DNA of 64,000 nucleotides, taken from a virus. The DNA lies in the IMG/VR virus record IMGVR_UViG_3300020205_001800, positions 1-64,000 of that record; one strand, given 5' to 3'. Below, piece by piece: positions 1,534 through 32,224 of the stretch. The first letter of the stretch is position 1. Every line of letters starts with the position of its first letter. The translations under genes were made by a program, and so were the position numbers. Under the pieces are notes generated by a model. That model was not told the DNA's origin and did no database searches. It saw only the letters and a program-made list of their open reading frames with translations.

Positions 1534-2607
1534 GTGGCAACGCTAGCAACACTATCTGAACGCCTTCGCTACGAAATAGGCGACATCCCCCGCTCATTTG
1601 TTGAGGGTTTTGAAGGTGACGGAGTCACAAAACGATACCAACTCACCGTAGCTCCAGTTGAAGGCAGTAGCCTAGTAATAAAGGTAAACGGCGTTGACGT
1701 CTCTAACTCCGCATCTGTAGAAGAACAAACCGGTATGGTAATCCTGGCAGTGGCCCCACTAGCAGGTGTTGGAATTTCTATAACCGGGACAGCTTTTAAA
1801 TATTTTACAGTGGCCGAAATTGAACAGTATGTAAATACTGCGTTCATTCAACATGCTGCTAGTACAACCGATTCCAACGGAAGTCGAGCTACATTACTTT
1901 CCTTGGCTGGAATTGAAGAGTATCCACTTGTACTTTTGGCGTCAACTATGGCCCTATATACTTTAGCCACAGACGCAGCATTTGATATTGATATTATCTC
2001 TCCAGACGGAGTTTCTATCCCACGTTCTGAACGTTTCCGTCAACTTTCCGAAACTATTACCCAACGTAAAGAACAGTACAGAGAGCTATGCAACCTTCTT
2101 AACATTGGTCTGCATCGCATCGAGGTGTTTAACCTACGTCGTATTAGCCGCCTTACAAACAAGCTCGTTCCTATGTACCGACCAATGGAGATTGATGATG
2201 CTTCACTTCCGCAACGTGTGCGACTCCCAATTCCAGCGTATGGGGACATCACACCTGAAAGTACCGCTCTCACTAAAGACTTGTCAATGTACTCAGGAGA
2301 TGACTTTATCATTAAGCTTAAGTTCTCAATGGACCTTACTAACTACACTCCTAAATCTGAAATCAGACTTTTCCACACAGGTGGTCGCGCACAAATAGGT
2401 CCAGTAATTGTTGGAACATTTATAATTACAAAAACCCAATCTGTAGCCGGAGGTGTGTATGATACGCTTCAACTATTCCTTCCAGGATCTGTAACCAAAG
2501 ACTTGCCACGTACCGCGTATTACGACATACAGCTTATTGATAGTGAAAACCTAACGAAGACATATATTTCGGGCAAGGTGTTTACTAAGGAACAGGTAAC
2601 TCTGTGA
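1534..2607 (+). CDS. Head-tail adaptor/neck-like protein with beta-sandwich insertions
   Basis: GGAGG RBS. Has LRYEIGD N-terminus and FTVAEIEQY motif typical of head-tail connectors; the C-terminal GDDF..L...YYDIQL segment resembles an attachment domain. Position after capsid fits. Confidence 0.6.
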
Positions 2608-5108
2608 CAAATCCAGAAATTGTAGAAATTATTGAACAACCTATTACAGTTATCACAATTGGCGCTGATCAAACAGGCGGCGTAGGACCAGTAGGGCCAG
2701 CGGGTCCAACTGGACCTAGAGGCGCAACTGGCGCAACTGGTGTAGGTGCAACTGGAGCTACAGGCCCTATGGGTGCTACCGGAGCTACCGGTGCAACTGG
2801 CGCAGTATCAACAACGCCAGGACCACGAGGCTTTGCTGGTGCAACTGGCCCCACAGGTCCTGAAGGTGCTGCATCACAAGTACCTGGACCTCAAGGTGAT
2901 AGAGGATCTACAGGTCCTGCAGGTGCCCAGGGTGATACTGGTCCACGAGGTTTTACTGGGCCTATCGGACCAACAGGTCCTAAGGGTGAAGACGGTTTAC
3001 AAGGCACGTCAATTAAATTTAAAGGCAGTGTCCCAACAGCAGCAGGACTTCCAACAACAGGCAATCAAAATAATGATGCTTGGATTGTGGATGCCGATGG
3101 CGATCTTTACGTTTGGGGCAGTGGCGTTTGGACAAGTGTTGGACAAATTGTTGGTCCTCAAGGACCTACAGGAGCGACAGGCGCTGCAAGTACAGTAACC
3201 GGACCACAAGGAGCGACAGGTGCAACAGGAGCGCAAGGACCTACTGGCCCTACTGGACAAACTGGCAATCTTGGACCCACAGGTCCGCAAGGAATTTCTG
3301 GACCTACAGGAAGCACTGGTCCTAGAGGACCGCAAGGAGATTTAGGCCCTACAGGTGCCGACTCTACTGTTACAGGTCCAACAGGATCTCAGGGACCTAC
3401 AGGTCCACAAGGAAACATTGGTGCTACTGGTCCTACAGGTGCTGCGTCAACTGTTGCTGGACCAACAGGTCCAACAGGGTTAACTGGTGCTACTGGTCCT
3501 ACAGGCCCTTCGGGATCATCTGTACGACTTTTAGGTTCGTTTAATTATTTTGGAGACCTGGATGTTACTGTCACAAACGCAAGTATTGGTGACACATATT
3601 TAGTTTTACTTGCGAGCCCGGAAAGTTTTGCGGGAAACCTTTGGACATGGAATGGCATAGGTTGGACTAACGCGGGGCAGATTCTTGGACCTACTGGAGA
3701 AACTGGACCAGCCGGAGACACTGGACCAGCTGGTCCCACAGGATCCACAGGAGAAGCAGGACCAACAGGTCCGACTGGAGCACAGGGCACTGGCGTAACA
3801 ATTCTTGGCTCGTATCCAAATGAAGCTGCGCTTATTGCTGCACACCCAACTTACACAACTCCACCAGCGGCTTGGGATAACTTTGCTTATTACGGACTTT
3901 ACGATTTAGTTACGGCTGGCAATCAAGTTTGGATTCTTGCCGGTACTGGCGGTTGGACCGTTGGCGGTGCACCTCCAGGATATAACTGGGCTCCATACAC
4001 CCAGCCACAAAACGGAGATAGCTATTTAGTAGCTGGAAATCTTTACGTTTGGTCTTCCAACACAAACTCTTGGATTAACGTTGGAAGTATTCAAGGACCT
4101 ACTGGTTCAACTGGGCCAACAGGACCAGAAGGACCAGAAGGACCAACCGGGCCGCAGGGTGAGCAAGGTTTTGTAGGAGAGCAAGGTTTACAAGGTAACG
4201 AGGGTCCTACAGGCCCAACAGGCGCAACTGGAACTGGTTTTGTTTATTTAGGTAACTATATAAATGGAAATGGTTACATAAGTGGAATTGCTGTTGTAAC
4301 AGGATCTGACGGTAATTTATATATTGCAACCGCAAACGGTGGATTAAATGACCCTGTTGGTAACACCGCCGAATGGGCTCTCTACTTACCTCACGGAGTC
4401 GAGGGATCAACAGGTCCAACAGGACCTACAGGTGCAGCATCTGAAGTTGCGGGCCCGACTGGTGAAGCTGGCCCTACTGGTCCAACTGGTGCACCCGGAC
4501 TTACGGGAGAAGCATCTGCATTTCTTGGTACGTGGAATAGCGTAACTGAATTTCTTGCCACATATCAAGGGGGGCAAGGATCTCTTCCAGCTGCTGACTG
4601 GTGGGCCTTTGTAAAAGACAATACTAACCCGAACAAAATTTACGTTGTTCGTGAAGACCCTAACTCTGCAACTGGTTGGGTAATTGATGATAACGAACAT
4701 TTTGTTTTACCTATCGGACCCACAGGTCCACAGGGTGAACCAGGATTAACAGGCCTTGAAGGAGATCCAGGCTTACCAGGTCCAACCGGACCACAGGGTA
4801 GGTTCTCTTACTCGCAAGACACCCCACCTACCTCTGGAAACAACGGCGATGCCTGGTTTGATTCTTCATCCGGATCCGCCTACATTTACTACGACAGCTT
4901 CTGGGTTGAAGTTGGTGTTGCACCTATTGGCCCTACTGGTCCGCAGGGTCCAGCTGGTCCTATTCAAGATATTTTGCCAGTTATCAACTCTGCGTTTATA
5001 CATGCAAATCATCAAGGAATCGTAGTATCCTTTGATGAACCAACATCAGAGATAAGAATTATTTCTGATGTAGCTTTTATTGAAGCAGTAGCCCTAGCGG
5101 GACTATAA
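2604..5108 (+). CDS. Collagen-like fibre protein with interspersed globular knuckle domains
   Basis: Long Gly-X-Y runs (GPT/GAT/GPQ) interrupted by GDxYxV..LYVW...W..VG.I domains. Confidence 0.9.
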
Positions 5109-7621: not shown

Positions 7622-10471
7622 ATGGCTTCTCTAGTATACCCATCCACCTCTGGTGCGGGCGTAGGTGCATTAACCTATAGCTTTGCAGCAGTCCCAGGTG
7701 CAGAATACGACACTACCGAGCTCAATGCCAGTAGCGTTTATGAATTTCGTGCTCAAGAAGAGCCACTTACAGTTGCTATCTACGCTGTAGGTAACCTAAC
7801 TAACCCTGCTGAAACTGTATCCTTAGCTAAAGGAAAAGGTTTTACACACAGCGGAACTATTGCCCGTATCCGAATCCTAACCGCAACAAGCGGCGGAGTT
7901 TCTTCTAATTCTGGTACAGGATCAACACTTCTTATTATTAAGTACAGCTCATCCACACCAACTCGTACAGGTTCTGTAAACGATGGTTTGGGCGATGTCT
8001 ACGTACACACTGAAAAGAGCCCAGACTGGTTTGCTTACGAAGGCTATGGTATGACGTCTACTCGTATTCCTATGACTGCCCGTCTTGACGGAACAGCAAA
8101 CACTGCCGCTTGGGTAGCTTGGACATACGACTCAACTGGAGCTGGTGTATATCGTTTTAGAAACACTCCTAGTACTGGAAATGGTATTGGAACTTCTAAT
8201 ACTACATTTTCTGGTATTGCAGGTAACTTCTTCTATAAGGCACTAAACAACACAACTAATACTTGGACACGTTTAGCTGATATTCCTCTACCTGTAGTTA
8301 GCGTTGAAAACGGAACTACTTTTTCTGAGCAACGCCTACGTCGTGGATTTATTTGGGATCAAGGAGACGAATTGTACGTAATGTTCCGTACAGTAGACTC
8401 TCGTACACAAACAATCAACGCAGTTCAGTACACTTCATCAAACCAATATTTCTATATCTATACAAAGGCTACAGATACTTGGACATTTGTTGGAGCTTAC
8501 AACGTCGGAAACACTGGCTATAACAGCTACGTAGATGGTCCTATGATGGCGTTTGTTCACACTATTAGCGGAGTCAAGTACTTCTACAACTGGCAGAACG
8601 AACGTTCTGGAAACGGCTTTGTTCGATACAACGTCTCTACAGGTGTTCGTGAAACCATTACAGCTGCAGCAGATACTTGGAACGAAGGTATTTACGTAAA
8701 TAACTACTTCCTTGCAACTCCTTCTCAGGGTATTGGTAACACTGACGGTGGTGCAACTGACTACCAGATTTACGACCCAACTAACAACGTATGGGCTAAG
8801 GTAACCCCTCCATCACGTTTGAATGAGGCATCTACTTGGTTCCGTGGCGGTCAGATTTTCCGTTACAACTCAACATCTTTCGGTGTTATTGGTCGTCGTA
8901 CCTATACAACAGATAACGCAGCTCCTTCTAACGGTGACCGTTACTATGGTCGACGTTTGTGGATCTATGACACAGCTACACAGTCTTTGGACCGTTGGCT
9001 AGACAAGTCTTCTGATCTAGACGACTTCTACCCACAGGCTATGCGTCCATCTCGAGATGTTCGAGGCGCCTATGTATTCCAACCTCAGGGTTCAAACTGG
9101 AACGGTCGATTCTTCCGTTTCGTAGATAACTTTGGTGGTAGCGCCGTCACTCGATTTAACCATGACTACGTAGATGTGTTTAAGCCTAAGAAGGTTGAAG
9201 CCATCGGTATGTACCGTTCTCGTGGAGAAATGTCAGTAGGTCTAAACTCAGTACTAGCTTTTGGACACGCAAGAAACGCATTTTCCCGTTCAACTACCTA
9301 CGTTATGTACACCCAACACTCACAGGATTCTGAAGTTAGAGGTGGACGTTCAAGTGGAGATACCTATGATTCAACTGTAAAGCAACGTCACGCATTTGAG
9401 TCTTGGGGTGCGGAATTGATTACAACTTCAGGAGAAGTTTACCCAGTTCTTCATGAAATGCCTATTATCCAAAGTATTTACGATGCGCAAATGCGTCGGT
9501 ACTATGTAACAGGCTTCTTGCCTTCTCGTTTAGGTTATCACTGGAATGATGGCGATATTGCAAACAACACCTACCAAAGAACACCTTGGCGTCAAGTTTC
9601 TGCAATTGTAGAAGAAGACACTGGTAAATTTTGGTACATGGACTACAACCAAACAGGTGATGAAAACTCTGGTGCGTACACTGTTGGTTGGAACCAGCAG
9701 AACTCTTACACATCTTCATCTGAATCTCCAGGAGAACTTGCTATCTACTCAAACGGTAAAGCGTTTAAGCCTGGAATTCACTTCATCCGACCTTACTCAG
9801 ACAACCACTGGGAAACATACAACATCTGGAACTTGTTCAGCACGCCATTTGGTTGGAGCCAGCGTTGGACTAACTACACTTGGTACTCTAACCAGTACAC
9901 AGGTGGAGGTATAGCCCCTCAGGGTTATCTATTTGGTCACGATGTTCTTGATAACGGCTATGTTCAGCTTGTTAAGTTTGGAACTGGCCGAATCAATGCT
10001 GTAGGTATTCCAGAAGGATCTATTTTCTGGGATGGTCGCGCATTGGTTCAGTACAGTCGTGAGACTGGAGTTGCTCCGTTTACAGCTGCTCAAACTGGCT
10101 GGCGTCGTCTGCATACAACCTCTAGCCCATACTGGTCTCAAGACACCACTATGCTACGTACACCACACGTGTGGTTTGACGGTCGCTACGCTATCTGCGA
10201 AAAGTCTGATGGCACTGGTTACTATGTATTTGACATGGATAACCTAGCGTTTGAGCCAAAGGTTATTCCGTCTCACATCCCTAATAACTCTCGTCCAACA
10301 CCTGCTTATCTAGCAGCAAACTCTGGAACAATCGGAAACGAAACCTGGCGATACTCTTACAACAAGGCTTGCCTTGGTGGAGTGGAGATCATTGCTGGAG
10401 GTTCAGAACAAGACAGCGTACGTACTTGGCGAAATCCAGGTTACTTCATCGTAAGATCTAAGGAGGTCTAA
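7622..10471 (+). CDS. Large beta-propeller (Kelch-like) protein, putative receptor-binding appendage
   Basis: Repeated Y(D/N)..TNTW motifs (NTWTRLADIP, YTKATDTWTF, YDPTNNVWAK); rich in aromatic residues, Gly and Thr. Confidence 0.6.
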   Translation: MASLVYPSTSGAGVGALTYSFAAVPGAEYDTTELNASSVYEFRAQEEPLTVAIYAVGNLTNPAETVSLAKGKGFTHSGTIARIRILTATSGGVSSNSGTGSTLLIIKYSSSTPTRTGSVNDGLGDVYVHTEKSPDWFAYEGYGMTSTRIPMTARLDGTANTAAWVAWTYDSTGAGVYRFRNTPSTGNGIGTSNTTFSGIAGNFFYKALNNTTNTWTRLADIPLPVVSVENGTTFSEQRLRRGFIWDQGDELYVMFRTVDSRTQTINAVQYTSSNQYFYIYTKATDTWTFVGAYNVGNTGYNSYVDGPMMAFVHTISGVKYFYNWQNERSGNGFVRYNVSTGVRETITAAADTWNEGIYVNNYFLATPSQGIGNTDGGATDYQIYDPTNNVWAKVTPPSRLNEASTWFRGGQIFRYNSTSFGVIGRRTYTTDNAAPSNGDRYYGRRLWIYDTATQSLDRWLDKSSDLDDFYPQAMRPSRDVRGAYVFQPQGSNWNGRFFRFVDNFGGSAVTRFNHDYVDVFKPKKVEAIGMYRSRGEMSVGLNSVLAFGHARNAFSRSTTYVMYTQHSQDSEVRGGRSSGDTYDSTVKQRHAFESWGAELITTSGEVYPVLHEMPIIQSIYDAQMRRYYVTGFLPSRLGYHWNDGDIANNTYQRTPWRQVSAIVEEDTGKFWYMDYNQTGDENSGAYTVGWNQQNSYTSSSESPGELAIYSNGKAFKPGIHFIRPYSDNHWETYNIWNLFSTPFGWSQRWTNYTWYSNQYTGGGIAPQGYLFGHDVLDNGYVQLVKFGTGRINAVGIPEGSIFWDGRALVQYSRETGVAPFTAAQTGWRRLHTTSSPYWSQDTTMLRTPHVWFDGRYAICEKSDGTGYYVFDMDNLAFEPKVIPSHIPNNSRPTPAYLAANSGTIGNETWRYSYNKACLGGVEIIAGGSEQDSVRTWRNPGYFIVRSKEV

Positions 10472-11907: not shown

Positions 11908-13650
11908 ATGGCAGTTAAAATTCAGTTTAGACGCGACACTGCTTCAGCATGGTCGACTGTTAATCCAATCCTTTCTCAAGGAGAAGCTGGGTATGAATTT
12001 GATACCGGACGCTTTAAAGTTGGTAACGGTTTATCTCCGTGGAACTCACTTCCATATTCTTCTGGTGTAACGGGCCCTACTGGTCCCCTTGGACCAACTG
12101 GTGCACAATCAACTGTCACAGGTCCTACGGGTCCTACAGGAGCAACTGGCCCAACAGGCCCATCTATTACTGGACCAACAGGCGCGGCATCTTTAGTTAC
12201 TGGGCCAACAGGACCACAAGGTGTAACCGGTCCAACAGGACCGACTGGACCTACAGGAGCAACTGGTGCAGCATCTACAGTAACTGGGCCAACCGGAGCT
12301 ACCGGCGCTACTGGTCCACAAGGAACATCAATTAGTTTTAAGGGAAGTGTTGCAGCTGTTGTAAATTTGCCTGTTGGAAGTAACGTCGTTAACGATGCTT
12401 ATGTTGTCGATGCAGATGGAAATCTGTATGTTTGGAATGGCGGAGTCTGGCAAGACGTCGGACAAATTGTTGGGCCAGAGGGCCCAATAGGCGCTACAGG
12501 TGCTACCGGAGCGGACTCTACAGTAACTGGACCCACAGGCCCTTCTGGAGTTATCTCTGTAACAGGACCGGTCACAAATACTGGAACATCTACAGCAGCA
12601 ATTCTTAATATTGATCAATCAACCATTTCTATTGCTAACACTCAGGTAACCGGCCTTGGCACAGCCTCCGTAAAAGACGTCCCTGCAACTGGAGACGCAA
12701 CTGCTTCACAGGTAGTCTACGGAACTGACACTCGCCTTGCTGACACCCGTACCCCATCAGATCTTTCAGTAACAACTGGAAAAATTGTTGACGCAAACGT
12801 TACTGAAGCAAAGCTTGCCTCAGACTCTGTTACTACTGTAAAGATTACCGACGCTAACGTTACTACCGCCAAATTAGCTGCAGATGCAGTAACTACCGCT
12901 AAGATCACTGACGCTAACGTAACCACAGCTAAGTTGGCTGCAGACGCTGTGACCACTGTAAAAATTACTGATGCTAACGTTACTACAGCTAAACTAGCTG
13001 CAGACTCCGTTACAACATCTAAGATTACAGATCTTAACGTTACTACAGCTAAGATTGCAGACGGGGCAGTTACAGCAGCTAAACTTAACGGAAACGCTTT
13101 CTTAAACCTTGCTGGAAACCTAAACCAGTCCCTTTCTGTAGTGGATGTAACACCTCGCTCTGGTAATAGCAGCGCATCGCTATCTAGCGGAAACGTTTAC
13201 TTTACGTTCTTTACCCCAATGTGGTCAGCAGAAGTAAACTCAATTAGCGTATCTTCCGCCTCAGTTCTTACCTCAGGAGTCTCTTTAATTAGATTCGGGT
13301 TGTACACATTTAATGATGCTACTGGAGCGGCTACTCTTGTAGCTAGAACTTCTGCTTCTACATCAATCTTTGCTTCTGCAAATACACTAGCTACCTTGGT
13401 ATTTAATACTACGGGCGGTTATCCAGCTACATACACCCTCGCTCCAGGAGTAAGATATGCTCTAGGAGTGATCATAGTTGCCTCTAACCCAGGAAGCGTC
13501 TACACCGCATACAACTCTCAACCTCTAGTACTTAGCTCACTATCTCCAAGAACTACGGGCGTAGTTGGTGCACAGACCGATTTGCCAGCAACCACTACAG
13601 TATCCACTGCAACAAGCGTTGCCGTGTGGGGAAGGTTTAGTACATCATGA
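11908..13650 (+). CDS. Collagen-like tail fibre with Mtd/hyaluronidase-type N-terminal domain
   Basis: [11 protein letters not shown]...[24 protein letters not shown]-terminus, Gly-X-Y runs, knuckle domain, VTTAK repeats and a C-terminal beta domain. Confidence 0.85.
12769..13086 (+). repeat. About eleven 30-nt (10-aa) tandem repeats, VTTAK(I/L)(TDAN/AADA)
   Basis: Alternating [10 protein letters not shown] / [10 protein letters not shown] units are visible in the translation. Confidence 0.85.
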
Positions 13651-13771: not shown

Positions 13772-14824
13772 ATGAAGGTAGCTGTCTACGCGATAGCGTT
13801 GAACGAAGAACAATTTGTAAAGGCTTGGTATGAATCCGCTAAAGAAGCTGACTACCTACTTATTGCTGACACTGGTTCTACTGATGGCACTGTTGCCCTT
13901 GCTAAAAGTCTTGGGATAAATGTAGTTGAAGTTTCAATTAAACCGTGGAGATTTGATGATGCTCGTAATGCTAGCCTCGCTTCTATCCCTGGGGATATTG
14001 ATTACTGCATTGCTCTGGATCTCGACGAAGTTTTAATACCTGGGTGGCGTGAACACCTAGAAACAGTCCCAACACAAACAACCAGACCCCGATACAAGTA
14101 CACGTGGAGCTGGGCTCCCGATGGTTCTCCAGGGCTTCAATACGGCGGGGATAAGATTCATTCTAGGCACGGATACCGTTGGAAGCACCCGGTACACGAA
14201 GTTTTAACCTGTGACCGCATAGAGCAAGTAGAGCACTGGGTTGACTTAGAAATCCACCATCATCCAGATAACTCTAAGCCTAGATCTCAATACATGCCGT
14301 TGCTAGCTCAGTCTGTAAAGGAAGATCCTTACGACGATCGTAATGCTTTCTATTACGCAAGAGAATTGTTTTTCTATGCCCAGTATGAGCAATCTACGGA
14401 AGAGTTTAAAAGGCACCTTTCTCTACCCAAAGCTTTGTGGCGTCCTGAGCGTGCAGCCTCTATGAGGTATATTGCTAAAATGGAAGATGATTTTCAAATT
14501 GCTTGGGATTGGTTAGTTAAGGCACACCAAGAAGATCCGGGAAGAAGAGAGCCTTTAGTAGACGCAGCTAAACTGCTATACGAAAATAAGTCTTGGACAG
14601 CTTGCCTACAAGCTGCAGAGAAAGCTATTGCTATAACTGAAAAACCTTTGGACTATCTATGTGAAGAGTTCGCCTGGAGCTCCGCACCCTGGGACTACGC
14701 AGCTATAGCTGCTTATAACCTGGGAAAGTTTGAGCTAGCCCTGACTTACGGAACCAAAGCGGTAGAATTGAACCCGAACGACCCCCGTCTTATAGCTAAC
14801 CTATCTTTCTACTCAAAGGAGTAA
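13772..14824 (+). CDS. GT2 glycosyltransferase with C-terminal TPR repeats
   Basis: YAIALNEE, ADTGSTDGT, FDDARNASL, LDLDE (DxD) and W..PVHE motifs; TPR-like helices (YYAREL, AVELNPND). Confidence 0.92.
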   Translation: MKVAVYAIALNEEQFVKAWYESAKEADYLLIADTGSTDGTVALAKSLGINVVEVSIKPWRFDDARNASLASIPGDIDYCIALDLDEVLIPGWREHLETVPTQTTRPRYKYTWSWAPDGSPGLQYGGDKIHSRHGYRWKHPVHEVLTCDRIEQVEHWVDLEIHHHPDNSKPRSQYMPLLAQSVKEDPYDDRNAFYYARELFFYAQYEQSTEEFKRHLSLPKALWRPERAASMRYIAKMEDDFQIAWDWLVKAHQEDPGRREPLVDAAKLLYENKSWTACLQAAEKAIAITEKPLDYLCEEFAWSSAPWDYAAIAAYNLGKFELALTYGTKAVELNPNDPRLIANLSFYSKE

Positions 14825-15733: not shown

Positions 15734-15963
15734 TGGGACTTAAAAGATATAATTCAGGAAACTCTGAGTGGGAAGCTTTTGGAACCCCACAGCTAAACCC
15801 TGCAAGCTTGGGTATTACAACAACCGCTATTAACGCTGTTGATAAAACCAACGGATTTGTGACAACTGCGTCTACATCTTCAGGAGTTGTACGTAACATT
15901 TTTGTTAGTACTAACGATCCTTCTGGTGGAGTTGACGGGGACATCTGGGTTAAGTATATCTAA
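15733..15963 (+). CDS. Small virion protein
   Basis: RNIFVST.DPSGG.DGDIWVKY motif; TAATG coupling on both sides. Confidence 0.75.
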   Translation: MGLKRYNSGNSEWEAFGTPQLNPASLGITTTAINAVDKTNGFVTTASTSSGVVRNIFVSTNDPSGGVDGDIWVKYI

Positions 15964-17162
15964 TGCCAGGTCAAGTCAAGGTTGGTGGTTCCTGGAAGTC
16001 TGCCTCAGGTCTTTCTGTAAAGGTAGGCGGCCAATGGAAAACTGGTACTTCCGCGTTTGTTAAAGTGGGAGGTGTTTGGAAGCAATGGTTTGCTTCTGTA
16101 ATCACTGATACTTTTGCACGCGACAGTACTGTTACCGGCCTAGGTACATCAGAGACCGGACAACCTTGGGCCTCTCTTAAAGGTAACTGGCGTGTAAGTG
16201 GGTCTCAAACTGCGCTCTCAGACGATGCCGGCTCAGTGTATGCCCTATCTTCAGTAAACTTTGGTAGCCCCGACTCAACAGTGCAAGCTTCAGTATCTCC
16301 TGGAATAGGAACTGCTTTTTGGGTAACGGATGCTAACAACTGGTGGGCTGCTGTTTCCTATACCACTTCAACATCGGCCTTTGTACCTATTACCTATCCT
16401 TGCCAAGAGTGCGTACAAACAAGCTGTACAGGTTGTTCTAGCTACACATGTTCCTGTAACAATGGTTCTGCTCCTACATATACCTGTCCTTGCGGAAACG
16501 GTTCACCAGGACAAGCCGCTACTCCAGGATCCGCAGACACAATGAACTGTCTCTGTCCTACCTCTACCGCACACCAAGTTCAGTGCGGATCAACATGTAC
16601 CTCTTGTTCTGGTCTTTGTCCTAATGGCGGTCCAGCAGGGTGCACAGGCTGTCTTAATACTGCCCCAGAAAGAACTTGCTTTGGTAACTGTTACTACAGA
16701 GACTCAAACTGTGCTTGTAACAACGCACAACCCGGAAGCCCATATATTGCACCTGTTGCAGATACTATGAACTGCTCTTGTAACAATGGCGGCCAACCCA
16801 CCTACAACTGCTGCTGTGGATATAGCTACCCTTGTCAACAATGCTATACAACGACGTGCCAAGGTACTCAAGAAGTCATAACTTACTATTACTGGCTACG
16901 ACTTATATCTTCAGTTAATGGGACAATAAGCACTCCAATCTCAGACGTTTCTTTAAGCTCCAGCCCAGCTGCAATACGAGTAACCACACTCGGCAATACA
17001 ATAACCGCTAGAGCGTACTCCAACACAAACTACACTACCCAGCTTGGTTCTACCATGACTCATACCCCAGGATCGCCTGTAAAAGGACCTTCTGTTGGTA
17101 TACTAAAGTCACCGTCTACACAACAAGGCTCAACTGTCGACTTATTCTCGACAACGATATAG
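15963..17162 (+). CDS. Virion appendage protein: VKVGG.WK N-terminal repeats and a beta-sandwich carrying a 28-Cys insert
   Basis: Three (V)KVGGxWK repeats. All 28 Cys lie in residues 147-299, flanked by Cys-free beta-rich sequence. Confidence 0.8.
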   Translation: MPGQVKVGGSWKSASGLSVKVGGQWKTGTSAFVKVGGVWKQWFASVITDTFARDSTVTGLGTSETGQPWASLKGNWRVSGSQTALSDDAGSVYALSSVNFGSPDSTVQASVSPGIGTAFWVTDANNWWAAVSYTTSTSAFVPITYPCQECVQTSCTGCSSYTCSCNNGSAPTYTCPCGNGSPGQAATPGSADTMNCLCPTSTAHQVQCGSTCTSCSGLCPNGGPAGCTGCLNTAPERTCFGNCYYRDSNCACNNAQPGSPYIAPVADTMNCSCNNGGQPTYNCCCGYSYPCQQCYTTTCQGTQEVITYYYWLRLISSVNGTISTPISDVSLSSSPAAIRVTTLGNTITARAYSNTNYTTQLGSTMTHTPGSPVKGPSVGILKSPSTQQGSTVDLFSTTI

Positions 17163-17172
17163 GAGAAATAGT

Positions 17173-17418
17173 ATGGCAAAAGATCCGTTTTCACGTCCGG
17201 CACGACCTTGGGATTTGTTTAATAAGAATCTAGGTCGAGTTGGGGAAACTATTGCCGAAGACCGCTTAGCTATTTGTAAGGCGTGCCCCAAGCTACTCCC
17301 TACAGGAAACTGCTCTGAGTGCGGATGCTTTATGTCTCAAAAAGTAAAGTTACCTAATGCGGAGTGCCCACTAGGTAAATGGGGCCACGTAGAAGTTACA
17401 TTTAAGGAGGAAAATTAA
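17173..17418 (+). CDS. Small Cys-rich metal-binding protein (DUF6171-like)
   Basis: RLAICKACP...CSECGCFM..K......CPLGKW pattern; AGGAG RBS. Confidence 0.7.
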   Translation: MAKDPFSRPARPWDLFNKNLGRVGETIAEDRLAICKACPKLLPTGNCSECGCFMSQKVKLPNAECPLGKWGHVEVTFKEEN

Positions 17419-17636
17419 TGAGTCTTAATAGCAAAAATAACCTACCACCAGTTAAACTAGCTTTTGTAATTGATGGTAAAATTGTAGAAACTTTTTATTC
17501 AGATCATCGTTTTGCAGCTATTCTTCTAAGCGACCCGATTGTTGTAGACGTTACTGAGATGCCAAGCCACCTAAGTTACGGATACGACTACCACTCTGAA
17601 ACGGGAACATTTACCCCACCTGACAAAGGACACTAA
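17418..17636 (+). CDS. Small hypothetical protein (possible fibre chaperone)
   Basis: AAGGAGG RBS, TAATG coupling; LAFVIDG.IV...GYDY...GTFTPP. Confidence 0.7.
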   Translation: MSLNSKNNLPPVKLAFVIDGKIVETFYSDHRFAAILLSDPIVVDVTEMPSHLSYGYDYHSETGTFTPPDKGH

Positions 17637-19664: not shown

Positions 19665-21209
19665 ATGACTACATACAGTCGCCCCGGAGTCTTCATCAGT
19701 GAAGTCGCCATCCCGCAGACAGTCGCGTCTGCAAATAACGGAACTGCTAGAGGTGCTTTTACAGGTACTTTTGCAAAAGGACCAACAGTTGAACCCGTTC
19801 TATTGAATAGCTGGTACGAATTTACTAAGACTTTTGGTAGTATTTCAGCAGCTTACCCAGCAACAATCGCTCTATACACTTTCTTCGCTAACGGTGGACG
19901 TCAAGTTTACGTAAAGCGCGTATTGGGTACCGGAGCTTTGCCAGCAACAGTGACTATAAAAAACCGTGCTGCTACCCCTCTCGACGCACTTACTATTGAA
20001 GCTGTTAACCAAGGAACTTGGGGAGATGATCTAAGCGTAAGCGTTACTTCAGCTTCAACATCTACCTTTAATTTAGTTATCTCAGATTCTAATGGAATCC
20101 TTGAGCAGTTTACTGACCTAAGCATGGTCACTACTAATTCACGTTATGTAGTTTCCTACGTTAACTCAGCGTCTAACTACGTACGCGTAATAGATGAAAA
20201 CAGCGCTACAACAGGTTCAGATAGACAACCTGCCATAGCAACTTCAGGGCTAGGCAGCGGAGCAAACGGTGCAGCGCCAACACGCACACAGTTCCTAAAC
20301 GCTTTGTCTACCTTTGACTCTATTAACAGCCCACTAATCATGAACAACGCTGATGCAGCATACACATTTGCATCTGGTGGAGACGAAGCAACAGAGCTAG
20401 TCCTAATGTTAAATCTACAAGCTGATATCGCGGGATACTGCGAAAATCGTGGAGATGCATTTGCTATCGTGGATATCCCAGTTGGATACACACAATCTGA
20501 AGCGTCTAACTACATCCTCGACCTAGTTGCAGATCCAGACTTTTCTGCTGCAGGTGACGGAGGAAACACAGCAACTTACTGGCCATGGATTGTTACGCCA
20601 GATAGCTTAAGCGCAGCTTCAGGAGCAACACGTCTTGTACCACCAGGACCGGCAGCTATGGGTCAATACCTTGCAAACGACGCTTCACGCGGAGTTTTCA
20701 AGACACCTGCAGGTTTTGGTACACGCATTGCTAACGCAGTAGCTGTAGAGCGCAACCTAACAAACCTAGAGCTTGATGCTATTAATGCTCAACGAAACCC
20801 AATTAACGCAATTCGTAACGTACCTGGTGCGGGAATTGTAATCATGGGCGGCCGTACTCTAAACAACACACCTGGCGATCGTTATATTAACGTCCGCCGC
20901 TCACTAATTTTCTTAAAGAAGGAATTGACTGATCGAAGCAATTTCGCAATCTTTGAGAATAATGATGCTCGTTTGCAGAATCAGCTTCGCACATCACTAG
21001 GTAACTTCCTCCGTTCATACTGGTCACAGGGTGGACTTCGTGGAAATACCCCAGCAGAAGCATTTTTCGTACGCTGCGATGCTTCAAACAATAGCGCTGC
21101 CGATCGTGAAAACGGTCGAATTAACATCGAAATCGGTGTCGCTCTTGAATACCCAGCAGAGTTCATTGTGATCAGCATTGGGCAGGTCACCGGAAGCGCT
21201 TCGGCGTAA
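19665..21209 (+). CDS. Contractile tail sheath protein
   Basis: YSRPGVFISE, RGVFKTPAG, INAIRNVPG.G..IMGGRT, YINVRR, AIFENND and PAEFIVI are hallmark sheath motifs. Confidence 0.97.
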   Translation: MTTYSRPGVFISEVAIPQTVASANNGTARGAFTGTFAKGPTVEPVLLNSWYEFTKTFGSISAAYPATIALYTFFANGGRQVYVKRVLGTGALPATVTIKNRAATPLDALTIEAVNQGTWGDDLSVSVTSASTSTFNLVISDSNGILEQFTDLSMVTTNSRYVVSYVNSASNYVRVIDENSATTGSDRQPAIATSGLGSGANGAAPTRTQFLNALSTFDSINSPLIMNNADAAYTFASGGDEATELVLMLNLQADIAGYCENRGDAFAIVDIPVGYTQSEASNYILDLVADPDFSAAGDGGNTATYWPWIVTPDSLSAASGATRLVPPGPAAMGQYLANDASRGVFKTPAGFGTRIANAVAVERNLTNLELDAINAQRNPINAIRNVPGAGIVIMGGRTLNNTPGDRYINVRRSLIFLKKELTDRSNFAIFENNDARLQNQLRTSLGNFLRSYWSQGGLRGNTPAEAFFVRCDASNNSAADRENGRINIEIGVALEYPAEFIVISIGQVTGSASA

Positions 21210-21223
21210 GGAGATAGAAAAAA

Positions 21224-21877
21224 ATGGCTCAAGCCTTTACAAACGTACTTAGTACATTACAAACGGATCCAATCCGTAATTTTCGGTTCCTGGTTGAATT
21301 CCTACCGTCTAATAACACAGCTGCCAATGAATGGGGTATTAACGCAAAGATGGGCTTTACCTCAGTGTCAGGCCTAACTGTTGCAACAGAGTCTATTGCT
21401 TACCGTGAAGGCGGATACAATACGACTATGCACCAGTTCCCAGGTCAAACCTCATTTAGCCCTGTGACATTTAGCCGTGGAGTTCTTCTTGGAAATTCAC
21501 AGCAATATGCATGGATGCGTCGCTTGTTCTCAGTTATCCAAACAGGAGCTAAGGCAGGCGTAGGTTCAGACTTCCGTTGCGATATCGACATCTCAGTACT
21601 TAGCCACCCAAATGCTAAAGGCTTAGTTGTTCAAGACGGAGCTCAAGCTGGAACTACAGCAGAACCACACGTAGCTCTACGATTCCGTATCTACAATGCT
21701 TGGATCACAAACCTTTCATACAGCAGCCTAGATGCAGGCGGAAGCGCTTACATGGTTGAAGAAATGACTGTTGTTCACGAAGGTTGGGATGCAAACTACG
21801 CAAAGGACTACAAGGCATCAGCAACAGACTTTGGTGACACACCAACAGACTCAGCAAACATAAGTAACGCTGTCTAA
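21224..21877 (+). CDS. Tail tube protein (T4 gp19-like)
   Basis: DPIRNFRFLVE, GFTSVSGL, YREGG.N...PG.T.F..VT..RG and NAW...LDAG..VEE motifs. Confidence 0.95.
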   Translation: MAQAFTNVLSTLQTDPIRNFRFLVEFLPSNNTAANEWGINAKMGFTSVSGLTVATESIAYREGGYNTTMHQFPGQTSFSPVTFSRGVLLGNSQQYAWMRRLFSVIQTGAKAGVGSDFRCDIDISVLSHPNAKGLVVQDGAQAGTTAEPHVALRFRIYNAWITNLSYSSLDAGGSAYMVEEMTVVHEGWDANYAKDYKASATDFGDTPTDSANISNAV

Positions 21878-22719: not shown

Positions 22720-22867
22720 AATCAGCTATCAAAATGTAATTGATGCCTATGACATGCTAGCCCAGTACTATCCGGGTTGGTCATTAGTAGACATAAGAAA
22801 TTTGTCCGTAAGAGAACGACTAGTGTTTTTATCCAAAGCAATTATGAGGCCTAAGGCGGTGATGTAG
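22709..22867 (+). CDS. Chaperone C-terminal extension in the +1 frame (G-T type frameshift product or small separate gene)
   Basis: Frame open 22694-22867, encoding FAHEISYQNVIDAYDMLAQYYPGWSLVDIRNLSVRERLVFL..., and ending TAG/GTG on the tape-measure start. No RBS of its own is visible. Confidence 0.65.
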   Translation, partial: FAHEISYQNVIDAYDMLAQYYPGWSLVDIRNLSVRERLVFLSKAIMRPKAVM

Positions 22868-25806
22868 TGGCAGACCCAAAGGGAAATATGGGCGCCGGTA
22901 TGGAAGACTTTACCGGTCAAAAAGGCGTATCTAAACTCATCGAAACTGGCACTAAAGGTTTTGGATCTTGGTTAAAGAACTTTAAAGAAGTTTTAACCGT
23001 TGCTGAAAAAACTAGAGACGTTGTAAAACAGACGGCAGATATTCAGGCGGGCAAGGGTTCCAACGGCAGCAAACTTGGTGCTGCCAAGATGGGGCCCGGA
23101 GCCTTCTCTGAACAGATTGGTCTTAAAGGCGGAAAAGCTTTTGCCGAAGAAATAGGTTACACGGGTACTCGTGAAAGCCGTATGGGAGCAGTAGCCCAAG
23201 GCGTAATGGCTGCAGGTTCGCTTGGTATGGGCTTAATGCCAAACACAATGTCGGCTGTAGGGCAAAGACTTGTAGCTGAGCAAATAGGCATGTTCTCTGC
23301 GGGAAATAGAAACCCTAGAGACATAATTAAGCAAGCTAACTCTATGACAGGTGGAGCAGCAACAAGTGCTGGAGCACCTACACGTGCTATGGGAATTATG
23401 TTGTCCCAAGGCGGATACGGTTTAAACTCAGGCTCTACTAGAAACCTTATGGGGCAGCTGGCGGGTGCAAGCGCCATTTCAGGCATGTCTATGGAACAAG
23501 TAGCCTCTTCCACTGCCGGAGCAAGTGGAATGACTTTCTTACGTTTAGGCGTAAGGTTGCGTGACCAAAATGGAAGCATACGTCCATACAACCAACTTGT
23601 AAATGAAATTTACCCAAAGATCTGGCGTGGGGATCCAAAGAACCCAGAATTAATTTTTAACCGTCAAAGCCGAGAAGGATTTACTCTTTCACAAATTACT
23701 GGCGGAGACGAAGGCCTATTTAACATTCTTGCTACGCTTCTTGTGCAACGTGCTAAAAACAAGAAGCCACTAACTGCTGCAAATTTAAAAACAACTAAGG
23801 GCGCGTTGGCCATGGCAGGCAACCCTAATGGGCTAATGCAGTCTGGTTTAGCACAGCAAGCTTCAGAAAACAGATTGCTTGGGGCAACAGAGAGCGGTTT
23901 AGTATCAGGCTACAAGGGGGCACTGGATACCTCTACAGCAGTTAACAACGGCCTTTCAGGTATGGCTGAGCTTCTACCTGGCGTTGTAGATGGACTGGGT
24001 AAGTTAAAGGGATTTTTAGAAACGTTTCCATCTACGGGAAATGCTGGATCAACTTTGTCAGGTTTAGCTGGAAATCTTGGAACCACATTGTTAGCCGGAA
24101 GAATGTTAGGTCTAGGTGGCCCAGGTAAAGTAGCCGTATCAGGTGCAGCAAAAACATTAAGCAAGGGCGTGCCAGTTCTAGGTGCAGCAATAAGTGCCTA
24201 CGGTGGATACAAAGCCGGCAAAGGAAGCAATAAGTTTAATTGGGGATCACTCCTCTCTTCTGCTGGAATAGGCGCCGCTGGTGGCGCTGCAGTAGGAGCA
24301 ATGGGGCTTGGAGTTGCTGCGGTCCCAGGTGCGGTTCTAGGTGCGCTTATTGCTGGCGGTAGTAATGCGGCGGGACAATTGCTTGGGCGAAACCAAGGCG
24401 GTGGTGACGGGAACGAATCCATGAGCGCAAACCTTGGTGGAGGAGCAGATAGTCTTATGGCTCCAGGAACTCACGTGTCTTCAGGATACGGCTCAAGAAA
24501 AGATCCTAACGGTTCTGGAAGACAACACCACAACGGTATTGACTACGCCATGCCTGTGGGCAGCGCAGTTGTTGCGGCTGCCGATGGAAAAGTTGTAATG
24601 ATTAGAAAACAACCCGGAAAGTCTAGAAGCTTTGGTTTGTACATGGTTCTGCAACATAAAGGTTTTTATACATACTACGCACACTTAAGTCAAACAATAG
24701 CTCGACTAGGACAAGAAGTGCGTCAGGGAGAAGTTATTGCAAAGTCTGGTGGAGAAAAAGGCGGACCAAACTCAGGCTCATCAACGGGCCCACACCTACA
24801 CTTTGAGGTTCGTAAATCTCTTACTAGCCCAAACAGCTCAGTAAACCCAACAAGTTTGTTTGGAAAATTAAAAAGCAAAATAAGCAGCCTTCTTGGAAAC
24901 AAAGATCCAGACGGAACTAAGCTTGCGGCGCAAGTAACCAAGAAGTACAGCAACTCTTTAGACGTGCTTGGCATGGGTGCAAACGGCTATGGAAACGCAT
25001 ACACCGGAACTCGTTTGGCAGACTTGCTAAAGAGTGGAAGCGCAATTGGTGTTCAAGACATGATGAACTTTGACAAGATGGGTGTAAATAAAAACCTATC
25101 TGCAGAAGAGCAGGCAGAGTTTAGCCAACACACTGCAAGTTCTGGAGACGGCGGAGGCATGGCATACGGCTCTCGTAAGGGACTAATGTCAGCTCTGTAC
25201 CAGCATGGATTTAGAGGAAAAGGATTAGCAACAGCATTTGGCGTTGCCTTGGCAGAATCCGGCGGCATGTCTAGAGCGTTTAACGGTAAGGGTAGAGACG
25301 AGTCATACGGCGTATTCCAAATTAACATGACTGATAAAGACCCTAAGAGTCCTAATATGGGTACTAATCGTCGTAAGCAATATAACCTAGCTAACAATGA
25401 AGCATTGTTCAATCCCAACACAAACCTTTCAACTGCCTATGGAATCTCGGCAAAGGGTAAATGGTGGGAGCAGTGGGCTACTTACAACGATGGTACTTTT
25501 ACAAAGTATTTAGATGACGCCCAAACAGCCGCACGTAAAGCTGGCGTACCTATTAATTTCTACGGCGAAGGTCGAACAAAAGAAGGTCCGGCATACCTTC
25601 ACGATGATGAAATGGTATTGAATAAGCAACAGGCTGATAAAGTTCGCGGTGGACTAGCGGGCGGTACAGCTCATGATCACCAAGTTGTAGTTAATATGGT
25701 AGTAAACATAGCTCAAGCTGGACAAGCAGAAGTACACGTACTTCTACAGCGCTTTAAAGAAGCTCTTGCTCAAGATAACGTTATTAAGCAGATTGGTTCG
25801 TATTAA
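22867..25806 (+). CDS. Tape measure protein with M23 peptidase and lytic transglycosylase-like domains
   Basis: G/A-rich helical body; HNGID and HLHFE M23 motifs; AESGG...SYGVFQIN...W.QWATY lysozyme-like motif. Confidence 0.9.
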   Translation: MADPKGNMGAGMEDFTGQKGVSKLIETGTKGFGSWLKNFKEVLTVAEKTRDVVKQTADIQAGKGSNGSKLGAAKMGPGAFSEQIGLKGGKAFAEEIGYTGTRESRMGAVAQGVMAAGSLGMGLMPNTMSAVGQRLVAEQIGMFSAGNRNPRDIIKQANSMTGGAATSAGAPTRAMGIMLSQGGYGLNSGSTRNLMGQLAGASAISGMSMEQVASSTAGASGMTFLRLGVRLRDQNGSIRPYNQLVNEIYPKIWRGDPKNPELIFNRQSREGFTLSQITGGDEGLFNILATLLVQRAKNKKPLTAANLKTTKGALAMAGNPNGLMQSGLAQQASENRLLGATESGLVSGYKGALDTSTAVNNGLSGMAELLPGVVDGLGKLKGFLETFPSTGNAGSTLSGLAGNLGTTLLAGRMLGLGGPGKVAVSGAAKTLSKGVPVLGAAISAYGGYKAGKGSNKFNWGSLLSSAGIGAAGGAAVGAMGLGVAAVPGAVLGALIAGGSNAAGQLLGRNQGGGDGNESMSANLGGGADSLMAPGTHVSSGYGSRKDPNGSGRQHHNGIDYAMPVGSAVVAAADGKVVMIRKQPGKSRSFGLYMVLQHKGFYTYYAHLSQTIARLGQEVRQGEVIAKSGGEKGGPNSGSSTGPHLHFEVRKSLTSPNSSVNPTSLFGKLKSKISSLLGNKDPDGTKLAAQVTKKYSNSLDVLGMGANGYGNAYTGTRLADLLKSGSAIGVQDMMNFDKMGVNKNLSAEEQAEFSQHTASSGDGGGMAYGSRKGLMSALYQHGFRGKGLATAFGVALAESGGMSRAFNGKGRDESYGVFQINMTDKDPKSPNMGTNRRKQYNLANNEALFNPNTNLSTAYGISAKGKWWEQWATYNDGTFTKYLDDAQTAARKAGVPINFYGEGRTKEGPAYLHDDEMVLNKQQADKVRGGLAGGTAHDHQVVVNMVVNIAQAGQAEVHVLLQRFKEALAQDNVIKQIGSY

Positions 25807-30661: not shown

Positions 30662-32224
30662 ATGAGCAATCAACTTCCCTTTCAAATTGACTACACGTCT
30701 AGAGATTACGATAGTCTTATTGCTGACCTTAAAAGTCTTGTAAACCTTCGCACAGAAAACGCATGGACTGGTGAAGACCCTAACGACCTTGGCACAGTAA
30801 TTTTAGAGTCATTTGCGTATATGGGGGACATCCTTTCTTATTACATCGATCGTGTAGCAAATGAACTTTCAGTAGAAACAGCTGCTCGTAGACAGACTCT
30901 TGTGAATTTAGGGCTTCTTTTTGGTTACCGAGTTTCTGGGCCGACCCCAGCAACTATTGATGTTACTTTTCAAAATATAAGCACGCAGACTATTGCTATC
31001 CCTGTAGGTACTCAAGTACTAGCAACTTTGCAGTATGGAATTTACACTGAAATTTATTTTGAAACAATTCAATCTGCTACAAGCCTTGTTCCAGGAGATA
31101 GTATAACTTTAACCTGTCTAGAAGGAAAAACAGTAAATACTGATAAGCCTAACCTTATTAGCCCAACTACAAATAAACCTTTGCCGGTTAACCTTGGAAG
31201 TTCCACGGGACGCGCTAATCAAACTTTGTCTTTGTTTGATTCTGGTGTGGTAGACAACAGCGTAACTGTATACGTAGGTCAAAATGCCTCTTTTACACCT
31301 TGGAAATTTGTTGACACTCTTTTAGAGTGGGGACCTACAAGTTACGTATTTACAACTTCTATCGATGAATATGGAGTTACCTCTGTTGTTTTTGGAGACG
31401 GAATTAACGGAGCAATCCCCCCTGTAGGCCAAGCAGTTAGTGCGCTATACAAAACTAGCTTAGGAATTGCTGGAAATATTGCAGCAAATACCGTAGAAGA
31501 AGTTACGTTCTTGCCAGGAAATACACTAAAAGCGGCGGTTTCATACCTTACTGTTAATAACGCAGCAAAGTCATATGGCGGAGCTGATGGCGATGATCTG
31601 AATCAAATTCGTAATAAAGTAAAAGCTGCTATTGCTACCCGCAAACGTGCGGTTACTTTAGCTGACTACGAAAACCTTAGCCTACTGGTACCTCAAGTAG
31701 GGCGAGTCAAAGCCACTTCAGCTGTGTATACGTCTGTGTCCTTGTACCTACAAAGTCAGAACGACGGGTCAGTAACTCCAGGACTTGCATTGGGCTCTCC
31801 AACTTCTTTGTGGACAGGTACGTCTAACAACGTTAAAGCTTATTTAAGTGACAAAATTCCAGTGGGAACAACCCTTACTGTTCTTCCACCAACATACGTA
31901 AATCTTACTCTTGAACTTACTATTACTGTTAAATCTTCTTACAAAGCCACAGATGTAGCTAAAGACATTAGGTCTGCGTTTATTAATTCTGACGGGCTCT
32001 TTTCATATGAAAAACAAGCTTTTGGTCAAGACGTATCCTACGCATCCATTATTGCAACGGTTTATAACTTGCCCGCAGTAAAAAATGGCGGCACGATAGT
32101 TGTTTCTAAATTTAATCGTTTAGGAAACAGCTCTGTAGAACCGGCGGCAATCGTACTTACAGACGCAGAAATTGCAGTTCTTCCAACAGAAAACTTAATA
32201 ATTACGGTTAATGCCACAGCCTAA
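30662..32224 (+). CDS. Baseplate J/gp6-like wedge protein
   Basis: IDYTSRDYDS, DLG...LE..AY.GD.LSYY.DR.ANE, FGDG..G.IP and RAVT..DY motifs. Confidence 0.92.
   Translation: MSNQLPFQIDYTSRDYDSLIADLKSLVNLRTENAWTGEDPNDLGTVILESFAYMGDILSYYIDRVANELSVETAARRQTLVNLGLLFGYRVSGPTPATIDVTFQNISTQTIAIPVGTQVLATLQYGIYTEIYFETIQSATSLVPGDSITLTCLEGKTVNTDKPNLISPTTNKPLPVNLGSSTGRANQTLSLFDSGVVDNSVTVYVGQNASFTPWKFVDTLLEWGPTSYVFTTSIDEYGVTSVVFGDGINGAIPPVGQAVSALYKTSLGIAGNIAANTVEEVTFLPGNTLKAAVSYLTVNNAAKSYGGADGDDLNQIRNKVKAAIATRKRAVTLADYENLSLLVPQVGRVKATSAVYTSVSLYLQSQNDGSVTPGLALGSPTSLWTGTSNNVKAYLSDKIPVGTTLTVLPPTYVNLTLELTITVKSSYKATDVAKDIRSAFINSDGLFSYEKQAFGQDVSYASIIATVYNLPAVKNGGTIVVSKFNRLGNSSVEPAAIVLTDAEIAVLPTENLIITVNATA

Follow-up and report, generated by a model that had tools for sequence, protein, structure and literature searches.

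A mirror-spaced, cysteine-rich insert in a lectin-fold tail-module protein of a myovirus: a putative disulfide-laddered stalk

The window analyzed here comprised the first 64 kb (64,000 nt) of a 100,626-bp viral genome with direct terminal repeats (IMG/VR record IMGVR_UViG_3300020205_001800). Its open reading frame (ORF) 15963 encodes a 399-aa protein in which a cysteine-rich module of 153 residues interrupts a Cys-free domain. This protein is probably a tail or baseplate protein with a lectin fold that bears a two-armed stalk, laddered by disulfides and tunable in length, together with a conserved knob. What the analysis established was the arrangement of the Cys, the site of insertion, the modeled fold of the flanks, the parity of Cys counts in the family, the co-variation of the arms, and a naturally split form of the gene; disulfide bonding, the individual Cys pairs, and a role in receptor binding are inferred.

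Cysteine pattern, insertion site, and paired arms

All 28 Cys of ORF 15963 were located by script within residues 147-299 (window 16401-16859) and none in the 246 flanking residues, as the original prediction had stated for an otherwise Cys-free domain. By our own arithmetic, the chance that 28 of 28 Cys would fall in these 153 of 399 positions is approximately 2e-12. The gaps between successive Cys (2, 4, 2, 4, 1, 9, 1, 18, 1, 9, 3, 2, 3, 7, 2, 8, 3, 6, 1, 18, 1, 9, 0, 0, 5, 2, 4) gave the layout CxC-x9-CxC-x18-CxC-[8-Cys core]-CxC-x18-CxC-x9-CCC. The palindromic spacing that had been described around an 8-Cys core was thus recovered, as were all of the motifs listed with it (NNGSAPTYT/NNGGQPTYN, ADTMN twice, and YPCQECVQTSC/YPCQQCYTTTC). 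The three CxC rung pairs shared one antiparallel register (163 + 285 = 165 + 283 = 175 + 273 = 177 + 271 = 196 + 252 = 198 + 250 = 448). Compared with shuffled gap vectors, the mirror arrangement had p ~0.003 by exact index and p = 0.0075 when the vector was aligned, with gaps, to its own reverse. When the first half of the insert was aligned locally to the second, in forward or reversed orientation, the result was no better than with shuffled sequences. The DNA repeats within the insert were short and diverged, and therefore the insert is not a recent duplication.

AF2, run on an alignment of 37 sequences, modeled residues 50-145 and 300-399 with pLDDT of 86-97, and two long strands (126-154 and 290-318) ran into and out of the insert and paired at its base. 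In a VIA-align comparison against 48,161 chains, the model was similar to CBM66 4b1m (Z = 17.7; root-mean-square deviation 2.2 A; 147 residues aligned), to the lectin domain of galactocerebrosidase (Z = 16.5), to the receptor-binding domain of phage TM4 gp23 (9n6a; Z = 15.9), to a baseplate chain of mycobacteriophage Douge (8zdo_a; Z = 15.5), to the CBM2 of phage J-1 Dit (Z = 12.2), and, with Z > 10, to many lectins and to carbohydrate-binding modules (CBMs) of GH16 and GH43. As modeled, the flanks are a ConA-like lectin/glucanase-fold CBM, a superimposable two-sheet jelly-roll beta-sandwich. Foldseek against the PDB returned weak lectin matches only (best E = 0.08). ORF 15963 matched no Pfam family at E ≤ 0.1 and no NCBIfam family, and searches of GenBank phages by tblastn and megablast were negative. 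The Douge chain, judged by its residue range (N-terminal ring domain plus C-terminal CBM), is BppU, and the BppU-CBM has been found experimentally to bind the M. smegmatis surface, lipoarabinomannan/arabinomannan (LAM/AM), and alpha-glucan fragments (PMC13033339). A relative from a 104-kb phage locus (L012) shares the domain, but at the site of the insert it has only a plain hairpin without Cys. Together with the modeled base strands, this agrees with the earlier claim that the module is inserted into a Cys-free, beta-rich domain.

The relatives comprised 65 homologues in 90% clusters, 117 confirmed viral loci, and, at 50% identity, 2,123 cluster representatives (E ≤ 1e-3). With few exceptions, the Cys of these proteins were confined between the region of an AFWVTD motif and the last ~93-112 residues. 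The inserts ranged from 42 to 476 aa, with 4-52 Cys, so the variation in length that had been expected was found; it consisted of differences in repeat number and indels. The Cys count was even in 47 of 49 insert clusters (binomial p = 4e-12) and in 56 of 57 independent representatives at 50% identity. Inserts of the family were composed of 12.5% C, 12.6% G, 14.1% S, 14.2% T, 8.4% N, 9.0% Y, and 5.1% P, with 3.7% D+E+K+R and 0.2% His. Beyond the immediate clade the insert was undetectable by tblastn, whereas the flanks kept 33-66% identity and neighboring genes up to 91%. Within the clade, identity at non-Cys positions was 0.75 in the core, equal to that of the flanks, and 0.57-0.59 in the rung loops, the most variable part; the core is therefore not hypervariable, contrary to what had been proposed. 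The spacing of the 8-Cys core (3, 2, 3, 7, 2, 8, 3) was retained in the distant relative P0066.

Changes in one arm were matched by changes in the other in several comparisons. In P0004/L002 (61-63% identical), C158 and C284 were replaced together, and 3 residues were deleted from both x18 loops, resulting in 9/9 + 15/15 rung loops instead of the 9/9 + 18/18 of ORF 15963. Rung loops were x12/x12 in P0066, with linkers of x16/x14. Elsewhere in the family, P0051/L005 differed from P0013 by a CxxxC unit gained in each arm, P0041 differed from P0039 by one C-x15-CC unit gained in the ascending arm and one x14-C unit in the descending arm, L073 differed from L081 by +4/+4 Cys, and L040 differed from L046 by two nested indel pairs. 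Matched changes in the two arms, in line with the symmetric gain or loss of rungs originally suggested, were thus observed both in the loop lengths and joint Cys loss within the clade of ORF 15963 and in the two-arm repeat gains of other clades.

The expectation that homologues would keep the mirror spacing held only in part: the gap vector aligned to its own reverse better than shuffled vectors at p ≤ 0.01 in only 6 of 45 unrelated clusters (0.45 expected by chance). Individual relatives, built from dissimilar repeats, were nevertheless strongly mirrored. In L067, 35 of 35 gaps matched the reversed series within one residue. L062 had the series 9x10,(6,3)x3,core,(6,3)x3,9x10 in arms whose sequences were unlike each other, and mirrored arrangements were also found in L063 (12 vs. 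13 repeats), L031 (11|11), P0193 (7|21|7), and P0176 (7|17|7). The longest Cys-free gap tended to lie centrally, more so than expected by chance (mean normalized distance 0.395 vs. null 0.534, p < 0.001). The nested order of the protein is not made by simple DNA duplication, and selection for matched arms is therefore the economical explanation.

At the DNA level, each arm of L062 (L062:6039-7133) carried its own 30-bp tandem array (~10 copies, 70-76% matches) and its own 33-bp array (2.3 copies, 88-90%). The two arms had expanded independently, yet their final copy numbers were equal.

In one lineage, the only one from which the split form is known, the family gene consisted of two ORFs broken at the apex of the insert (L130:2828-3927, which equals L161:1881-2980, and L162:1926-2980). 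L162 came from a second sample and was 99% identical, and the junction was the same in both samples. The first ORF (N flank and one arm) ended in ...GACMMQ-stop, followed by a Shine-Dalgarno-like GGGAAAGG, 9 nt, and the ATG of the second ORF (the other arm and the C flank). Each half encoded 10 Cys, and their gap series (1, 2, 20, 2, 4, 2, 5, 2, 16 and 11, 1, 7, 1, 6, 1, 23, 1, 2) mirrored each other, CxxC in one half lying opposite CxC in the other. The split point aligned to the middle of the insert in an unsplit relative with 22 Cys (L164). To judge from these sequences, the split at the apex fits two arms that associate laterally.

We propose that ORF 15963 encodes a tail- or baseplate-associated protein of glycan-binding type of a ~100-kb myovirus, in which a ConA-like/CBM beta-sandwich follows a short N-terminal anchor. 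The module, poor in charged and aliphatic residues and rich in Gly, Ser, Thr, Asn, Tyr, and Cys, would extend from the end of one beta-hairpin of the sandwich as two antiparallel arms, one outgoing and one returning, whose register would be kept mainly by disulfides between facing Cys. The pairs that we infer for the rungs are C163/165 with C285/283, C175/177 with C273/271, and C196/198 with C252/250; C158 would probably pair with C284, and C147/155 with C299/291. The arms would bear the conserved distal knob of 8 Cys. Because each rung needs a partner in the opposite arm, the length of such a stalk could change only by matched changes in both arms, which would result in mirror spacing and in co-varying loop and repeat numbers. 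The likely role would be that of a rigid, oxidation-hardened projection of tunable length, which would either offer the host envelope a surface for binding or hold the lectin domain at a distance from it.

The domain also occurred in other forms. L012:6001-8064 (and also L011, L013, and L014) had no insert and carried instead ~450 aa of C-terminal Cys-rich modules between runs of 13-24 prolines, that is, the same kind of module displayed differently. P0181 (392 aa) had, at the same hairpin, a Cys-free insert of ~185 aa rich in Tyr, Pro, Ala, and Ser, and thus the hairpin site tolerates a second kind of stalk. A 996-aa form (L007:4270-7257) carried ~650 aa of repeated Thr/Ser-rich modules ahead of the domain with lectin fold and Cys insert.

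Evidence against the ladder and alternative explanations

Several observations weigh against a laddered stalk. The repeat units in the insert of ORF 15963 are direct and not inverted (blocks of the CNCQTC or YPCQxC type occur at both ends), and two short plus two long loops have a 1-in-3 chance of falling in mirrored order; the mirror is therefore weak when ORF 15963 is taken alone, and its weight comes from the homologues. Among these, the spacing was not significant at p ≤ 0.05 in 36 of 45 clusters, and the paired changes in the clade of ORF 15963 itself were all on a single branch. In pairwise comparisons, Cys-bearing indels affected both arms in the same direction in 75 cases, both arms in opposite directions in 31, and one arm in 70, a census used only as a caution (crude mid-point as arm boundary, non-independent pairs); such one-arm changes imply that local disulfides must exist too. 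The AF2 pLDDT of residues 154-290 was 25-35, with no pairing information, and was ~30 even in the very regular L062, so the insert was not resolved by any model and the cross-arm pairing comes from the sequences. Virions assemble in the reducing cytoplasm, and no thioredoxin, glutaredoxin, or DsbA match was found in the phage genome; oxidation after lysis or a helper must therefore be assumed. A search of the same genome for Erv1/Alr gave no match either, but its control was silent and the result is uninformative.

Some of these points suit an insert made of several small Cys-rich domains in a row, each independent of the others and resembling EGF, TNFR, or granulin, with local disulfides only, in which the palindrome would be a by-product of short and long units in tandem. 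A near-palindromic Cys motif need not imply mirror pairing, as granulin illustrates. The direct units can be written as CxC-[GN]N[GA]...[ST][MY][NT]-CxC with loops of x9, x12, x15, or x18, one-arm changes by even numbers of Cys do occur, and AF2 gave no hairpin for the insert; to these the chance of a mirrored loop order has to be added. We consider this explanation unlikely. The whole protein had no Pfam match at E ≤ 0.1, EGF and TNFR profiles included, and the insert had no PDB sequence match at E ≤ 1. Local pairing would leave unexplained why repeat numbers are equal in unlike arms (10/10 + 3/3 in L062, the 35 gaps of L067, P0193, and P0176), why loop lengths shift in concert and C158 and C284 disappear jointly, and why one gene is split exactly at the center, with 10 + 10 Cys. 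Simple duplication of DNA would not give the nested order of the protein in any case.

The Cys could instead bind metal, in Zn/Cu/Cd thiolate clusters of metallothionein type or in Zn or Fe-S knuckles, which would suit a reducing cytoplasm. Metallothioneins typically contain CxC, CC, and CCC motifs, the cytoplasm is where virion proteins fold, the phage genome yielded no thiol oxidoreductase gene, and the conserved neighbor DUF6171 resembles a Cys6 metal-binding protein. The Cys counts, however, were multiples of four in 21 of the 49 clusters and 2 mod 4 in 26, and were 2 mod 4 in 20 of the 57 representatives, which argues against sites made entirely of Cys4. The counts did not follow the multiples of three or four expected of metallothioneins and Cys4 zinc sites, and His, needed for Cys/His ligand sets, makes up only 0.2% of insert residues. 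Metallothioneins lack aromatic residues, whereas Tyr makes up 9.0% of the insert. In many relatives single Cys stood 8-20 residues apart rather than clustered, and the Gly/Ser/Thr/Asn/Tyr-rich composition with 3.7% charged residues resembles that of extracellular disulfide-rich proteins. Even parity combined with non-multiples of four favors disulfides over metal sites and suggests complete pairwise bonding. Of the staples originally envisaged, disulfides or Zn/Fe, the former are favored over the latter by the same counts, and we regard metal binding as quite improbable.

An equally small probability is given to a flexible, largely unstructured linker whose intermolecular disulfides staple the protein to its own copies or to baseplate partners. 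The very low pLDDT and low-complexity composition of the insert would be compatible with such a linker, and the split-gene lineage makes inter-chain association of the two halves possible. A precedent exists in cyanophage Pam3, in which the fibers are disulfide-linked to the wedge (PMC9942802). Cross-links to other proteins, however, need no strict even parity, mirror spacing, or matched arms. In addition, the other real genes of the window were not notably Cys-rich (the frames with denser Cys were short minus-strand ones overlapping larger plus-strand genes), and conservation of the core spacing in distant relatives suggests a folded knob.

Gene layout and neighboring genes

A PHROG scan of the window identified collagen-like tail fibers (2604-5108 and 11908-13650), a tail sheath (19665-21209), a tail tube (21224-21877), a tape-measure-like peptidase protein (22867-25806), and a baseplate wedge (30662-32224). 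The virus is therefore a myovirus, and ORF 15963, located between the tail-fiber genes and the sheath gene, belongs to its tail module. The nearest Atlas clusters were viral or Actinomycetota, and an actinobacterial host, probably among freshwater Actinomycetota, is plausible.

Along the gene (15963-17162, + strand), the ORF list, context, and homologues delimit an N-terminal anchor and a ConA-like domain interrupted by the Cys-rich insert. The anchor (residues 1-45; 15963-16097) consists of three short beta-hairpin repeats of the VKVGGxWK type, with AF2 strands at residues 4-44. PHROGs of unknown function matched the anchor region alone (residues 1-77), and the same domain bears different N-termini in other clades, which fits a virion-attachment module of the kind that is typical of modular tail adhesins. 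The N-terminal half of the predicted beta-sandwich (residues 46-146; 16098-16400) is Cys-free, contains the AFWVTD motif, and is 36-66% identical to relatives (pLDDT 86-97). It leads into the ascending base block (residues 147-162; 16401-16448), with C147, C150, C155, and C158, the first part of which (residues 147-154) lies within AF2 strand 126-154 that pairs with 290-318. The ascending rungs (residues 163-198; 16449-16556), CSC-x9-CPC-x18-CLC, mirror residues 250-285 in the register given above and have 0.59 identity at non-Cys positions within the clade. The putative knob, or distal core (residues 199-249; 16557-16709), was delimited by its 8 Cys (208, 212, 215, 219, 227, 230, 239, and 243) and by conservation in the clade. 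It is followed by the descending rungs (residues 250-285; 16710-16817), CAC-x18-CSC-x9-CCC, in which x18 corresponds to x15 in P0004/L002. The descending base block (residues 286-299; 16818-16859), with C291, C294, and C299, lies from residue 290 onward within AF2 strand 290-318, and the C-terminal half of the sandwich (residues 300-399; 16860-17159) is again Cys-free, with pLDDT of 90-97 and 33-60% identity to relatives. All of these features are on the + strand.

Immediately downstream, on the same strand, an 81-aa protein with six invariant Cys (17173-17418; CxxC-x8-CxxCxC-x12-C) passed the Pfam gathering threshold for DUF6171 (PF19668, 33.7 bits vs. a cut-off of 27; PHROG 13558, E = 7e-15). 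The start of a 72-aa Cys-free ORF (17418-17636, + strand), which had no PHROG match, overlaps the stop codon of the DUF6171 gene, and this ORF accompanied the other two genes in most of the loci compared. The three genes formed a conserved trio even in loci that shared no other neighbor. In genomic context taken from IMG/VR, 73 of 80 family loci had DUF6171 downstream in the same orientation. Conversely, the family gene was detectable in 44 of 66 DUF6171 loci, nearly all upstream on the same strand, as counted in loci with enough upstream sequence and with narrow flank profiles. P0014 is a natural fusion of a family protein with DUF6171, and the identity of DUF6171 among relatives (45-87%) was above that of the flanks of ORF 15963. 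We hypothesize that DUF6171 is a candidate helper of ORF 15963. Prediction of a complex of the two proteins gave no answer (score 0.01), that is, no evidence either way, and a literature search found no paper on DUF6171. It is conceivable, though doubtful, that the stalk is an evolvable ladder in which paired gain and loss of rungs sets the reach or specificity of the lectin, and that DUF6171 and its 72-aa partner form a two-gene helper set for its maturation, enabling folding despite assembly in the cytoplasm.

Two other genes of the window were of note. The first, which lies within the group of tail genes and is retained by the closest relatives, encodes a GT2 glycosyltransferase with C-terminal TPR repeats (13772-14824; PHROG 13126, E = 7e-116), which could glycosylate adjacent Ser/Thr-rich virion proteins. 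The second is a 949-aa ORF without PHROG match (7622-10471), residues ~88-154 of which were weakly similar to the N flank of ORF 15963 (blastp E = 0.002); to judge from this match, it may hold a second lectin-like domain. A radical-SAM target (TIGR04114, the name given to P0055) was considered for the family and rejected: ORF 15963 gave no match, P0055 scored 17.3 bits, below the cut-off of 20, and no PF04055 was present in the phage genome.

Comparison with known systems

Host range in phages is determined mainly by receptor-binding proteins, and tail proteins with a lectin fold are already known. If the ladder is real, it would constitute a new, simple, and highly extensible scaffold, with rungs every 8-20 residues and inserts of 42-476 aa on one fixed base, in which two distant segments of one chain are forced to evolve in step. 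It would also pose the problem of how a virion protein with so many disulfides is produced when the virus assembles in the cytoplasm. The family is large (~2,100 clusters at 50% identity) and seemingly typical of abundant freshwater phages, and it may matter for phage-host recognition in lakes. Our literature searches found no published description of a two-armed stalk with 28 Cys, or up to ~50 Cys, on a tail protein with a lectin fold.

The ConA-like CBM and receptor-binding domain of actinophage tails (Douge BppU-CBM, 8zdo; TM4 gp23, 9n6a) and CBM66 4b1m have the same fold as the modeled flanks (Z = 15.5-17.7, 147-170 residues aligned), and the actinophage proteins also share the layout of an N-terminal anchor and a C-terminal lectin-like domain encoded in the tail module. 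Identity to ORF 15963 is only 8-12%, with no detectable sequence similarity. To our knowledge, no hairpin insert resembling the 153-aa, 28-Cys module is present in the structures of Douge BppU, TM4 gp23, or CBM66.

Tail disulfides have been described in an aquatic myovirus, cyanophage Pam3, in which reduction dismantles the tail (PMC9942802). They differ in being a handful of intersubunit bonds between fiber and wedge, with no intrachain ladder, hypervariable insert, or lectin scaffold.

The bovine ultralong CDR-H3 (PMC8602281), to which the insert had originally been likened, is similar in general architecture: a long two-stranded projection leaves a beta-sandwich and carries a small disulfide-rich knob, and the length of the stalk is both variable and important. 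The likeness goes no further than analogy. The bovine stalk has no Cys rungs, its knob has few disulfides, its diversity is somatic, and its scaffold is an immunoglobulin domain, whereas ORF 15963 has Cys in the arms, varies in the germ line between phages, and is built not on an immunoglobulin VH domain but on a lectin-type sandwich encoded in a phage genome.

The putative arms can also be likened to cystine-ladder beta-hairpins (theta-defensins, protegrin, and tachyplesin; PMC13001179, PMC10096437), in which CxC motifs on antiparallel strands form parallel disulfide rungs. At the sequence level, the common register of all six Cys in the three CxC pairs and the co-variation of loop lengths would be compatible with such a ladder, in an insert whose pLDDT is 25-35. 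These peptides have 16-18 residues, 2-3 rungs, and tight turns. In the family of ORF 15963, by contrast, the putative rungs would be separated by loops of 9-18 residues, would number up to ~18-25 in relatives, and would be carried by an insert within a protein of 400 aa.

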